Assembly: GCA_965207535.1 (NCBI GenBank)
Contig: CBDBMR010000008.1
Coordinates: 8 to 64,007, forward strand
DNA from: Rhodospirillales bacterium
Lineage (GTDB): Bacteria; Pseudomonadota; Alphaproteobacteria; Rhodospirillales; UBA2165
Direction of reading: 5' to 3'
Length of the DNA stretch: 64,000 nt
The notes beneath the pieces were generated by a model that worked only from the letters and a program-made list of their open reading frames with translations, ran no database searches and was not told where the DNA came from. This document shows positions 60,074-64,000 of the stretch, piece after piece. The translations under genes were made by a program, and so were the position numbers. Position 1 is the first letter of the stretch. Every line of letters begins with the position of its first letter.

Positions 60074-60229
60074 GACCGATAGATAGCCCCTGGGTGCCGG
60101 AAGTACCAGCAGGGAACGCGGGGTTGAATATTTCCCCGTCCGGTGTCATTGCAATGCCATGCGCCCCGGCGTACATACCCAACGATTAGACGCCCATTCC
60201 GACCCGACAACGCTTCAAGGGAGACCAAT

Positions 60230-60559
60230 ATGGCCGACTCGCTCGCCGAACGGGGCAAAGCCCACGAAACTCAGTTCAAGCTCACCCAAGAACAGGAATT
60301 CAAGGCGGAGGCCCGGCGCAACCGTCTGCTCGGCGAATGGCTCGCCGAACGCTTCGGGCTGCCCGAGAGCGAGGTCGCCGACTATGCCAAATCCGTGGTT
60401 GTGGCCGACCTCGAAGAGCCCGGTGTCGAAGACGTCATGCGCAAGGTGATGAAGGACATCGCCGAGCACGAGGTGGACATTTCCGAGGACGAGGTCCGGG
60501 AAAAGCTGGACGGGCTCATGGACGTCGCGAAACAGCAGATCGCCGACGAGGCCTCCTGA
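60230..60559 (+). CDS. DUF1476 / F1Fo-ATPase inhibitor zeta subunit
   Basis: ERGKAHETQF...EFKAEARRNRLLG...ADLEEPG.EDV.RKV. Confidence 0.88.
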   Translation: MADSLAERGKAHETQFKLTQEQEFKAEARRNRLLGEWLAERFGLPESEVADYAKSVVVADLEEPGVEDVMRKVMKDIAEHEVDISEDEVREKLDGLMDVAKQQIADEAS

Positions 60560-60624: not shown

Positions 60625-61251
60625 ATGGGTAGAGAAGATCAAACACCGACCGAACCCGGACAGGCGCTGGTTTCCGGCGTCCTGTCGTTCTGGTTCGGCG
60701 AGCCGGGCGACGGGGATTTCGATGACAAGGGCCAATGGTGGTTCCAAGCCGACCCGGAATTGGATGCCGAGATCGGGCGGAAGTTCATGGACGCTTACCG
60801 GCAGGCCGCGTCCGGCGGGCTCGATCACTTGAAGGAAACGCCGGACGGCTGCCTGGCCTTGATCATTCTGCTGGACCAGTTCTCCCGCAACCTGTTCCGG
60901 GGATCGGCCGAGGCCTTCGCCGCCGATGGCAAGGCGCGGGAGCTGGCCGATTACGCGATCTCGCAGGGTTACGACCGGGAATTCTCCAGGAACCGGAAGC
61001 TGTTCACCTATTTGCCGTTCGAGCATTCGGAGGACCTTGCCGATCAGGAGCGGGCGGTCGAGCTGATAGGGACGTTGGACGATGAGCATCTTAGCGGGTA
61101 TGCCGTCCAGCACCGGGATATCATTGCCGAATTCGGGCGGTTCCCGCACCGCAATGCCGTTCTCGGCCGGGAGAGCACGGCGGCGGAACTCGAGTTCCTC
61201 GAAGACCCCAAGAACTCGTTTGGCCAAACGAAGGATGACGACAGGAAATGA
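60625..61251 (+). CDS. DUF924 family protein
   Basis: VLSFWFG, LDQFSRN.FR, YLPFEHSE, FGRFPHRN. Confidence 0.92.
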   Translation: MGREDQTPTEPGQALVSGVLSFWFGEPGDGDFDDKGQWWFQADPELDAEIGRKFMDAYRQAASGGLDHLKETPDGCLALIILLDQFSRNLFRGSAEAFAADGKARELADYAISQGYDREFSRNRKLFTYLPFEHSEDLADQERAVELIGTLDDEHLSGYAVQHRDIIAEFGRFPHRNAVLGRESTAAELEFLEDPKNSFGQTKDDDRK

Positions 61252-61865
61252 CCGAAGACATTCGACAAAAGGTATTGGACTTCTGGTTCGGCGAACCGGG
61301 AAGCGAAGAGCACGGCACCTTTCGAATTATCTGGTTCCGGGGCCGGACGCCGGAGTTCGATCAGGAAATTCGCGACGGATTTATGGAGATCCACGAGAAG
61401 GCCGCCGGCGGCGAATTCGACCATTGGATGGAGACCAAGGAGGGCTGTCTGGCGCTTTGCATCCTCCTGGACCAGTTCCCGCGCAACATGTTCCGGATGA
61501 CGCCCAGGGCCTTCGCGACCGATGCAAAAGCCCTCGAGGTCGCCAAACACGCCGTCGCCAACAAGTGGGACGAAGAGGTCTCGGCCATCGAGCGGCACTT
61601 TTTCTATCTTCCTTACGAACATTCGGAAGAGTTGGCGGATCTCGATGCGGTCACCGAACTGGCGCCCAAGACGGGCCGGGAGCGCACGGCCAAGGCGGTC
61701 GCGGAGCACCGCGACCTGATCGTCAAGTTCGGACGCTACCCCCACCGCAACGAAATACTGGGCCGGGAATCGACGCCGGAAGAGATCGAGCACATGAAAA
61801 ACGGCGGCAAGAATTTCGGCCAGGGCGCGACGCCCGACCCCATCCCCGACGAGGAAGAGGATTAG
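61248..61865 (+). CDS. DUF924 family protein (tandem paralog)
   Basis: VLDFWFG, LDQFPRN, YLPYEHSE, FGRYPHRN. Confidence 0.92.
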   Translation: MTEDIRQKVLDFWFGEPGSEEHGTFRIIWFRGRTPEFDQEIRDGFMEIHEKAAGGEFDHWMETKEGCLALCILLDQFPRNMFRMTPRAFATDAKALEVAKHAVANKWDEEVSAIERHFFYLPYEHSEELADLDAVTELAPKTGRERTAKAVAEHRDLIVKFGRYPHRNEILGRESTPEEIEHMKNGGKNFGQGATPDPIPDEEED

Positions 61866-62797
61866 CGATTGTTCAGTTGTTTCAAGTGGGCTCGGCAGCG
61901 CTGGTAGATGCCGTCAAAGAAGTCTGGCTCGTTTCTTCGTTGCGCGGCAATTTTTCCCAACAAACTCCTTGTTTCTGGGAGTGAGAGCTCTTCCACAGGT
62001 CTCCGGCCAATGAGTTCTCGAATCTCTGTTCGTTTTGAGTTCTTCACCCGTAGGCCACCGCCTGGATGGACCGCTGAACCCGTTATCGTCTTGTACTCGT
62101 TTGCGGCGTAGCGCTTAGTTTTGGAGAATTTGAGCCGAAGATCGACCGGACTCAGCATCTTGTTGATGTCTCGCGTCCACCCTCTTGGGAAGGGTTTGTC
62201 GCGGCTAAATGTGATGTCGTCTACCCAGAGCGACATTACAATGTCTTGGGCCGTCGCCGCCGCATTAATTCGATTGAATGACTTTTGATAGGCCCAGTAC
62301 GCCATATCCTGGCTTGTCGATGTTCCAGTCGGAATGTGGCCTTTGTATGTAACTAGATCAGCAAGCAATGTGGCAACGTCGCCGACCATATCGAATTCGG
62401 CCTTAAAACATTCAATCACAAACTCCCGTTTTGTACTTTGGAAGAAGCTATCTATGTCAACGCTGACCAGCCAAGCCTCTGGATGATGTAGTAGCGCATT
62501 GTCGATTGCGCTGACACCAACCTTGCCTGACATTAGCCAAGATGGTGTTTCAATTCGTCTGATGAGGCTGTGCAGGCGCTGCTGTATAGCTGCTAGACGG
62601 GGAAGAGGCTCTTCAATGAGACGATCTTTTCTGCCAGGTTCCCGTTTCCACCATTCCTCATAATTTTCTCCCTTTTGCAAGGCTCTCAATTCGCTGGGAG
62701 TGGTCTGAAGAATTCGGGCCAAATCGGCTTTTTTGCCAATTCGATAGAGCGGTGATTTGTTGATTGGCACCAAATTAGGTTGTTTGGGCTTCGACAA
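61862..62797 (-). CDS. Retron-type reverse transcriptase
   Basis: RLIEEP, NALLH (region X NAxxH), DIDSFF, HIPTGTSTS, LWVDDITFS, KTK, ITG (VTG-like region Y). Confidence 0.88.
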   Translation of the reverse strand: MSKPKQPNLVPINKSPLYRIGKKADLARILQTTPSELRALQKGENYEEWWKREPGRKDRLIEEPLPRLAAIQQRLHSLIRRIETPSWLMSGKVGVSAIDNALLHHPEAWLVSVDIDSFFQSTKREFVIECFKAEFDMVGDVATLLADLVTYKGHIPTGTSTSQDMAYWAYQKSFNRINAAATAQDIVMSLWVDDITFSRDKPFPRGWTRDINKMLSPVDLRLKFSKTKRYAANEYKTITGSAVHPGGGLRVKNSKRTEIRELIGRRPVEELSLPETRSLLGKIAAQRRNEPDFFDGIYQRCRAHLKQLNNR

Positions 62798-63068
62798 TCT
62801 GGAGAAACCTAATCAATTTCTGTCGCATGAATGAGCGGGACTGCGATTTCGGCTCCGATTTCTTTCCCAATTCTTCAGAGAAAAAGAGAATGGCCGAGGG
62901 CGAAGTCTCAAAGAATTCAGCATATTTGTTGATCGTTTCAATTGACGGTACTCGCTTACCTTTTTCTATCTCAGAAATATGGCTCGCAGACAGACCGAGT
63001 GCCAAAGCAAGCTCCACAGTCTTGCAGTCATGAAATACCCTGATCAAACGAAGTGCTTCGCCCAGCAT
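62775..63068 (-). CDS. XRE/Cro-type HTH protein of the retron operon
   Basis: LRLIRVFH...ELALALGLSASHISEIEKGKRVPS; overlaps the RT start. Confidence 0.88.
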   Translation of the reverse strand: MLGEALRLIRVFHDCKTVELALALGLSASHISEIEKGKRVPSIETINKYAEFFETSPSAILFFSEELGKKSEPKSQSRSFMRQKLIRFLQIVEAQTT

Positions 63069-63097
63069 CGCTACGTTCTCGCAGTTAGAAGGAAAAA

Positions 63098-63271
63098 CTA
63101 GTCGTTCTCAGTCAGATGCTTTACGCAAAAAAGCACGAAGCGAATGATTCTGCGGCGAATCGATTTCACCCAGCGCTTCTTTGACGATCGCCAATTTGCG
63201 CACATCTGCCGAGAAACAACACACAGTCGCACCGTTAGGTGGATAGTCGTCTGTTGTTGACGATCGTCCAT
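63098..63271 (-). CDS. 57-aa basic small protein, candidate retron effector
   Basis: Strong SD AAGGAGG 5 nt before the ATG; MDDRQQQTTIHLTVRLC...KKRWVKSIRRRIIRFVLFCVKHLTEND. Confidence 0.55.
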   Translation of the reverse strand: MDDRQQQTTIHLTVRLCVVSRQMCANWRSSKKRWVKSIRRRIIRFVLFCVKHLTEND

Positions 63272-63274
63272 AGC

Positions 63275-63560
63275 CGCCTCCTTTCCCGTACTTCTAGAAG
63301 CACCCCATGTGCTCCTTTCTGAGTACGTCCTCGTGGGAAAGGCTGGGTCTCGGCTGTGCTTGTCGTTTCTCCTTCTCATTTTGCCGCGATCAGCAGTCCT
63401 CGCTGATCGCGGCGCCGACGCACGTCCCATCCATGGAAACCGTGTCAGTCATCCACAGAGGGAATTGCGCCATGCACCTCAAAAATAGTTGGGCCGAAGC
63501 CCGCGAGCGCAGTCTGCGCTCCAGTCGTGTCCGAGGACAATGACCCTACCTAACGGATGA
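63275..63560 (-). ncRNA. Candidate retron msr-msd non-coding RNA
   Basis: Hairpins at 63505-63521, 63491-63502 (C-UUCG-G), a perfect 12-bp stem at 63383-63413 and a long stem at 63280-63342. Boundaries approximate. Confidence 0.55.
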
Positions 63561-63645
63561 GGGGACCCTACTCGAGTCGCTTAAGAACGTCTACAAAAAA
63601 GTTCTAAAATAGAGAATTTTTTTCTCAGGGCGTGTTCACATTGGA

Positions 63646-63849
63646 CTACCCAAAGACGCGGGCGAAGATGGCGTCCACGTTCTTGGTCTGATAGCCGAGA
63701 TCGAACAGCGCCGTCAGGTCGTCTTCCGGCAGCTTGGCCGTGACGTCGGCGTCGCCTTTCAGCGCGGCCAGAAAATCGGCGCCGTTCTTCCACACGTCCA
63801 TGGCGTTCCGCTGGACCGCCGCGTACGCGTCCTCGCGGCTCATGCCGCC
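63646..63849 (-). pseudogene. purB: 3' fragment of adenylosuccinate lyase gene
   Basis: GMSREDAYAAVQRNAMDVW...FLAALKGD.DV...LFDLGYQTKNVDAIFARVFG. In-frame TAG and non-PurB sequence lie immediately upstream. Confidence 0.75.
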
Positions 63850-64000
63850 CCCGCGCCCCTACCACCGCATCGCGCCGGTGAGCATCGCGCCGTGGGCCGG
63901 CTCGCCGGTGCCCGCGCTCTCGCGGCGGGTGGCGTCGAGGTTGATGCTCCATCCGCTCGCCGCGCCCGTATCATCGTCGGTGCTGCTTGTTTTCTTTGAT

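Follow-up and report, generated by a model that had tools for sequence, protein, structure and literature searches.

The 64,000-nt stretch of contig CBDBMR010000008.1 analyzed in this work (hereafter, the window) carries near its end, at 61862-63600 of the minus strand, what is, judged by sequence, a complete retron of Type VI, whose genes are ordered SP-HTH-RT, i.e., a gene encoding a small protein (SP), followed by genes encoding a helix-turn-helix (HTH) protein and a reverse transcriptase (RT). By analogy with Retron-Vpa2 of Vibrio parahaemolyticus, we consider it likely that the SP is a toxin, which is kept untranslated by a hairpin enclosing its ribosome-binding site (RBS) and is released when multicopy single-stranded DNA (msDNA) pairs beside the strand complementary to the Shine-Dalgarno sequence (anti-SD strand). 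This proposal builds on the anatomy of the locus, its conservation, the covariation of its RNA helices and the concerted change of two copies of a short repeat, all of which were observed directly in the sequences compared here. It should be stressed that a silenced-toxin mechanism has already been published for Type VI retrons (2025) and that the locus is a further example of a known anti-phage system. Its contribution is an intact Type VI retron, with a previously unnamed SP family, in a class for which the mechanism was elucidated only in 2025-2026.

Identification of the Type VI Retron

The locus was assigned to Type VI because its RT and HTH protein match the RT_VI and HTH_VI profiles, respectively, and because the RT carries the motifs of retron enzymes. 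The best PADLOC model for the RT was RT_VI (4.1e-71, profile positions 1-274 of 279), with RT_X as the runner-up (1.6e-28), and the HTH protein matched HTH_VI (1.8e-27, profile positions 1-91 of 92). Among the Pfam families, RVT_1 gave only a weak match to the RT, and HTH_3 matched the HTH protein (6.1e-11). Applying the motif definitions published in PMC7736814, we found NALLH at residue 100 of the RT (NAxxH, region X), WVDD at residue 191 (catalytic xxDD), and ITG at residue 238 (VTG-type, region Y). ITG is a variant of VTG, and WVDD, a variant of YxDD, was present in 4 of the 58 RT open reading frames (ORFs) collected. No close RT was found in 61 related genomes, in which the best match outside its own genome showed 31% identity, and the best matches among plasmids showed 34-37% identity, none of them exceeding 37%. 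For the HTH protein, 210 relatives were found, and arginine 7 (R7) is invariant in all 43 aligned sequences.

The locus thereby resembles Type VI as described by Mestre et al. 2020 (PMC7736814), i.e., a retron RT of clade 3 bearing NAxxH and VTG-type motifs, a small Cro/C1-type HTH protein (cluster 2_1), and a small auxiliary protein without an identifiable domain. Unlike the SP of the window (57 aa), the auxiliary proteins given there are 75-79 aa long (clusters 2075, 2760, and 3272). According to a later paper, that study had not found a non-coding RNA (ncRNA) with structure for Type VI.

The Small Protein Gene and Its Relatives

The SP gene begins with ATG 63271-63269 (minus strand), 5 nt behind the Shine-Dalgarno (SD) sequence AAGGAGG (63283-63277), which the earlier note on this DNA had already read there, and its stop codon lies 29 nt ahead of the HTH gene. 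As judged from its relatives, the ORF is a genuine gene and is conserved. Six SP relatives of 58 aa with 70-79% identity came from a word-indexed search, and a profile search of 1.84 billion representative proteins yielded nine clusters with E <= 0.001, whose members (57-66 aa) align with the SP end to end. The positions of start and stop are kept in 16 of 16 SP protein relatives, and all of them begin at the MDD/MED position. Moreover, the SP profile matched the ORF located directly upstream of the HTH gene in five related metagenome loci, i.e., L010 (4.6e-29), L011, L009, L012, and L013. The SP matches no profile in Pfam or PADLOC.

Two near-relative contigs from public runs (approximately 93% and 90% identical to the retron) were compared with the window by their indels and contig ends. 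Single-base indels were found only at 63379, 63425, 63428, 63437, and 63538, i.e., in the upstream ncRNA, and there were none within the SP ORF (63098-63271) or the HTH gene. A longer, 110-aa in-frame reading from ATG 63430 was rejected, because the single-base deletions at 63379-63437 in these two contigs fall upstream of ATG 63271 and none falls inside the SP ORF, and the relatives start at the MDD/MED position.

The product has a net charge of +9. Its hydrophobic moment, taken for residues 33-50, is 0.62, and its hydropathy is highest in the segment 42-50 (IIRFVLFCV), of which I42, R44, V46, and L47 are invariant or nearly so; the cationic amphipathic C-terminus ascribed to it earlier is therefore present. 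Its AlphaFold model is a single long helix (pLDDT 77, pTM 0.34), i.e., not an informative fold. Prediction of an HTH-SP complex gave 0.63, 0.03, and 0.02 in separate runs, which amounts to no verdict, and it was used neither for nor against binding.

Conservation of the ORF beside homologous RTs had been named as a check in the earlier note. The HTH alignment (43 of the 210 relatives) retrieved 80 metagenome loci, 77 of which have at least 300 nt of upstream DNA. In 64 of these 77 loci, an ORF of 30-110 aa led by an SD ends no more than 120 nt from the HTH gene, and a further 12 have an SD-like-led ORF of 25-28 aa, so that a small ORF stands upstream of the HTH gene in 76 of 77; an RT was present in 53 of the 54 loci with at least 900 nt of downstream DNA. 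The small proteins cannot be aligned across lineages, and all of them show a basic stretch followed by a hydrophobic helix. Scans of genome contigs with the RT and with the SP alignment, and of metagenome contigs with the SP alignment, returned pattern matches only and no confirmed relative.

In 12 loci of Type VI-like lineages (L017, L035, L037, L040, L041, L043, L022, L024, L055, L061, L063, and L073), the small ORF has only 25-28 codons and is reduced to a short basic stretch and one hydrophobic helix. This suggests the hydrophobic helix as the minimal functional unit of these small proteins. L047 is the only locus with an HTH homolog that has no SD-led small ORF upstream; an RT homolog is also absent downstream, and this locus may represent either an HTH gene standing by itself or a retron that has decayed.

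Predicted Structure of the Retron RNA

A 486-nt piece of the minus strand (63570-63085) was predicted to fold with -212.5 kcal/mol (z -6.9), and none of 100 shuffled sequences folded as well. Within this structure, the anti-SD strand CCUUUCCC (63342-63335) pairs with the SD strand GGGAAAGG (63287-63280) to give the outer stem of a riboregulator hairpin, and the same stem is found in the minimum free energy (MFE) structures of both the 486-nt and a 91-nt piece. The inner stem is formed by AGGAGCAC (63316-63309) and GUGCUUCU (63303-63296), with the whole inner-stem region spanning 63316-63296. In the full-length fold, five of the seven SD bases are paired with p >= 0.96 (63283-63280 with p >= 0.99 and G63277 with 0.96), and A63279 (0.02) and G63278 (0.23) are free. 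The helix reaches the start codon (U63270 0.69, G63269 0.94), the A of AUG being unpaired. Mean SD pairing at this locus was 0.87, in comparison with 0.38 after shuffling of the upstream part, and none of 20 shuffles reached it. The same design of outer stem, bulge, and inner stem was predicted in L009-L013.

The earlier note had proposed a long stem pairing the 5' half of the SD, and the fold bears out the pairing of this part. Among the stems that it named, the outer one was recovered, as was GCAC/GUGC, which belongs to the longer inner stem; GUACU/AGUAC (63326-63322 / 63292-63288) is not part of the MFE structure. The latter pairing is possible by sequence, and for relatives a corresponding middle stem is predicted, in which both sides have changed.

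For the analysis of covariation, the locus was aligned with L010, L009, L011, and L012, the consensus structure being derived from these same five related sequences. The consensus comprises 102 pairs, 35 of which have changes on both sides. In the four helices tested, 17 of 38 pairs changed on both sides, as against 8.0 +/- 2.0 in column shuffles (0 of 500 reached the observed value), and at most seven pairs did so in a control in which the partner was slid by 1-3 columns. Separated by helix, changes on both sides concerned 6 of 11 pairs of the msd-like hairpin, 7 of 12 of the long-range helix formed by two inverted repeats (IR1 and IR2), 3 of 4 of the middle stem, and 1 of 11 of the anti-SD/SD helix.

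The inner stem (63294-63319, minus strand) also holds GAAAGGAG once more, and a mini-frame of four codons (AUG...UAG) comes after it. The possibility that this mini-ORF, with its own AAAGGAG at the hairpin apex (63308-63294), acts as a decoy or leader was rejected, as it is absent from the four aligned relatives; judging from the alignment, the mini-frame is probably only stem sequence.

A Twin 7-nt Word in the msd-like Hairpin and the Riboregulator

The word CGAGGAC occurs twice in the predicted RNA (minus strand). Copy A (63402-63396) occupies the apical loop of the msd-like hairpin, and copy B (63333-63327) lies in the 8-nt bulge between the anti-SD and inner stems. The complementary DNA (cDNA) of the word in the msd loop is thus exactly complementary to the bulge word next to the anti-SD strand. 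In four close relatives, both copies are the same word within a locus, and the word differs between loci (GAGGAC, GGAGAC, and GAAGA).

This pattern was examined in 53 loci, in windows -145..-98 and -74..-34 upstream of the SP start (L067 was dropped for its short upstream DNA). An exact repeat of at least 7 nt was present in 25 of the 53 loci, representing 23 distinct words, in comparison with a mean of 4.99 and a maximum of 11 loci in 200 dinucleotide shuffles. When the copy-A window of a locus was compared with its own copy-B window, the mean longest common word was 6.45, as against 5.07 for foreign windows, and none of 2000 permutations reached the observed value; matches of at least 7 nt were found in 25 of 53 own pairs and in 222 of 2756 foreign pairs. 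Because the loci are related to each other, these figures are not to be taken as probabilities. The repeat copies are less paired than the surrounding region (0.45 for A and 0.38 for B vs. 0.64), and in most of the 25 loci the apex of a hairpin contains copy A, and an unpaired bulge behind an outer stem contains copy B.

The preprint on Retron-Vpa2 (Zhang et al., bioRxiv 10.1101/2025.10.22.683967) proposes, without demonstrating it, that msDNA pairs with the RNA through a 7-nt direct repeat, one copy of which lies in the msd loop and the other in the riboregulator loop, and the preprint calls the direct repeats highly conserved in sequence. In the loci compared here, the two copies change together between lineages, which is a modest step beyond the preprints on Retron-Vpa2 and Retron-Sen3. 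Such concerted change provides a cheap comparative argument for pairing of msDNA with the riboregulator and points to swap experiments. We tentatively suggest, as a possibility somewhat short of even, that the twin words are a lineage-specific address, by which the msDNA of each Type VI retron would unlock only its own toxin mRNA. If this is true, the co-variation over 53 loci would be comparative evidence for the hybridization step, a hypothesis in the Vpa2 preprint, and these retrons would constitute a natural set of orthogonal DNA-triggered riboregulators.

Proposed Mechanism and Alternatives

According to the published description, Retron-Vpa2 produces a hybrid RNA of about 470 nt, in which msr-msd is joined to the coding sequence of a translationally repressed, toxic SP of 55 aa, the RBS and start codon lie in stem-loops, and inverted repeats close the RNA; msDNA accumulates on triggering and is needed for SP translation (bioRxiv 10.1101/2025.10.22.683967). 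Compared with that description, the locus in the window shows the same SP-HTH-RT order, a predicted pairing of the RBS and start codon, R7 of the HTH protein, a structured RNA of about 470 nt joining msr/msd to the SP coding sequence (here as a predicted fold), and inverted repeats through which the RNA immediately behind the SP stop is connected to the first arm, 5' of the riboregulator. It also shares the 7-nt direct repeat, present once in an msd loop and once in a riboregulator loop, and a small protein of similar length (about 55 aa) whose C-terminal helix is hydrophobic. Unlike that of Retron-Vpa2, the SP belongs to a small separate family (nine representative clusters in the 1.84 billion proteins), the RT has WVDD instead of YADD, the repeat word and stems are different, and the host has a high-GC, probably alphaproteobacterial genome. 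The hybrid-RNA design (a presumed toxin encoded in the RNA of the retron, pairing of its RBS, bracketing inverted repeats, and the twin 7-nt word) thus appears to extend well past the Vibrio and enterobacterial examples.

Following the Vpa2 model, the first 470-490 nt or so would be transcribed as one structured hybrid RNA, composed of an msr/msd-like domain, the riboregulator hairpin, and the SP coding sequence, and closed by the 12-bp IR1-IR2 helix. In the resting state, the paired RBS would allow little or no SP to be made, and the HTH protein would restrain reverse transcription. Upon infection, msDNA copied from the msd hairpins would accumulate, and the DNA complement of copy A would pair with the identical RNA word in the bulge, so that the hairpin opens, the SP is translated, and the growth of the infected cell stops. 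The toxicity of the SP, its translational repression, the production and role of msDNA, the role of the HTH protein, and the triggering by phages are all transferred here from Retron-Vpa2. The earlier note had arrived at a toxin silenced by RNA structure and released when reverse transcription or the state of msDNA changes, and homology, the conserved anatomy, and the Vpa2 precedent support this idea.

Several observations weigh against this reading. In Retron-Sen3, also a Type VI retron with a sequestered RBS, the SP is reported to be constitutive (Garcia-Rodriguez et al., bioRxiv 10.64898/2026.04.27.721009), and therefore RBS pairing alone is no proof of translational silencing. The local hairpin taken alone has a z of only -2.04, and 6 of 200 shuffles of the 91-nt piece fold equally well. 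Across 54 loci (chosen from 74 with a candidate ORF, 20 having been removed by eye as SP duplicates or near-duplicates or for lack of an SD), mean SD pairing was 0.73, as against 0.62 in shuffles and 0.56 for the RBS of the HTH gene; only 12 of the 54 loci exceeded all 20 shuffles, and in several the SD was less paired than in the shuffles. The anti-SD/SD helix is nearly invariant, with 5 of its 11 pairs never varying, and because it varies so little, covariation neither supports nor refutes it. The windows of the repeat test were picked after the repeat had been seen, in loci that are kin and were de-duplicated only by SP sequence, and the repeats of L002, L009, L026, and L044 are not in loops and are probably due to chance. 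Finally, 23 of the 36 SP codons changed between the window and L010 are non-synonymous and 13 synonymous, and the differences are distributed over the codon positions as 15/15/25, so that purifying selection on the SP protein is not strong.

The main alternative, which we regard as unlikely, is that the SP is always translated and is neutralized by the HTH protein as in a toxin-antitoxin pair, in which case infection would free the SP without any change in msDNA, and RBS pairing would only tune its level. This is the arrangement published for Retron-Sen3 of Salmonella enterica (SP cluster cl2075), whose single-stranded DNA and SP are described as constitutive and whose HTH protein is said to exert control post-translationally. 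The locus in the window has in common with it the gene order, an HTH gene partly overlapping the RT gene, an SP gene whose RBS is sequestered and whose coding region is structured, an IR1-IR2 helix in which IR2 follows shortly after the SP stop, and an amphipathic SP with a hydrophobic C-terminus. The distance of 29 nt between the SP and HTH genes resembles toxin-antitoxin spacing, and the two SD bases and the A of AUG that are unpaired in the fold point in the same direction. However, the concerted change of the repeat copies is to be expected if msDNA addresses the riboregulator and would have no role in a purely protein-level switch, and the main text of the Sen3 paper contains neither the term "direct repeat" nor "riboregulator" and does not mention the direct-repeat signature that is present here. 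Furthermore, the Sen3 SPs, as described, are 79 aa long with an N-terminal extension and belong to cluster cl2075 of Beta- and Gammaproteobacteria, unlike the 57-aa SP of the window, which is close in length to the 55-aa SP of Retron-Vpa2.

It is improbable that the SP is translated and is not a toxin, e.g., that it serves as an adaptor or regulator of the RT or HTH protein while something else arrests growth. Even for the published systems, the way in which SPs act as toxins is described as unknown, and the single helix of the AlphaFold model is uninformative in this respect, but the SP alone is reported to be toxic in both Retron-Vpa2 and Retron-Sen3, and its position, size, charge, and hydrophobic C-terminus are kept here. 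Less probable still is that the ORF is untranslated, its conservation reflecting RNA structure only (a third arm of the retron RNA) with the effector encoded elsewhere: base pairing of the coding region is heavy, the Sen3 paper describes pairs that covary inside the stretch coding for the SP, and the third-position bias between the window and L010 is weak, but an SD-led or SD-like-led frame (25-72 aa) is kept in 76 of 77 loci despite unalignable sequences, its products share the basic stretch and hydrophobic helix, start and stop are kept in all 16 protein relatives, the 1.8-kb island around the retron contains no effector gene besides SP, and SP toxicity has been demonstrated in two Type VI retrons.

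Features of the Locus and Its Genomic Neighborhood

The features distinguished within the retron are summarized in Table 1. The long imperfect hairpin between the msr-like domain and the msd-like hairpin aligns poorly among the relatives and is, by analogy, a candidate part of the msd template. TTGTAG and the next three bases are kept in the diverged flanks of two related contigs, and its role as the -35 element of the retron promoter is uncertain. A scan for consensus promoters and terminators revealed no promoter upstream of the RNA and no terminator, and an Rfam scan of 61500-64000 at E <= 1 matched no family.

Table 1. Features of the Type VI retron locus (coordinates of the window).
Feature	Coordinates	Strand	Basis
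Reverse transcriptase, 311 aa	61862..62797	-	RT_VI profile and motifs; 23-nt overlap with the end of the HTH gene
Low-GC island of about 1.8 kb with the whole retron	61866..63645	.	GC 0.44-0.58, in comparison with 0.6-0.7 outside
Cro/C1-type HTH protein, 97 aa, Type VI partner	62775..63068	-	HTH_VI and HTH_3 profiles
IR2, 3' arm of the long-range helix	63087..63098	-	Begins at the last base of the SP stop codon; 12 bp with IR1
SP gene, 57 aa and TAG stop, presumed toxic effector	63098..63271	-	Translation, relatives, no indels in two related contigs
Riboregulator hairpin	63268..63353	-	Predicted anti-SD, bulge with copy B, inner stem, SD strand, extension to the start codon
Shine-Dalgarno AAGGAGG of the SP gene	63277..63283	-	Read from the sequence
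IR1, 5' arm of the long-range helix around the riboregulator and SP gene	63365..63376	-	Pairs with 63098-63087 in the MFE structure
msd-like hairpin of 12-13 bp, apical loop with repeat copy A	63383..63413	-	Fold; both-sided changes in 6 of 11 aligned pairs
Long imperfect hairpin, candidate part of the msd template	63414..63475	-	MFE helices 63475-63446 / 63442-63414
5' (msr-like) domain, hairpins 63545-63523, 63521-63505, and 63502-63491	63477..63562	-	MFE helices; same hairpins in the consensus of five relatives, with both-sided changes
Possible -35 element TTGTAG (uncertain)	63591..63596	-	Aligned with TTGAC in L009, L010, and L012

The low-GC island is flanked by a DUF924 gene and an adenylosuccinate-lyase gene, which converge on it with their stop codons. 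A corresponding empty site was found in run X3, where, at the end of a contig, the DUF924 stop is followed directly by sequence matching the window from about 63650 onward, i.e., the 3' end of the lyase gene, and where the stop codons of the two genes overlap. The retron island thus seems to have been inserted precisely between two convergent genes, with its borders at 61866 and about 63645-63650; neither an integrase nor a flanking repeat was seen in the 1.8-kb island.

On the side of the lyase gene, the window holds only its last 65 codons (63646-63843, minus strand; Pfam ADSL_C 9.7e-18). The DNA beyond this point (63844-64000) is very GC-rich and has no lyase frame, and the contig ends about 30 nt past the window; the lyase gene may be truncated, or there may be a repeat or an assembly break at this position. 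On the opposite side, two DUF924 genes are arranged in tandem (60640-61251 and 61248-61865, plus strand; Pfam 4.4e-62 and 2.5e-60), the second beginning at the stop of the first. Upstream of this pair lies a gene for the ATPase inhibitor subunit zeta (60143-60559; 1.1e-31), a protein typical of Alphaproteobacteria.

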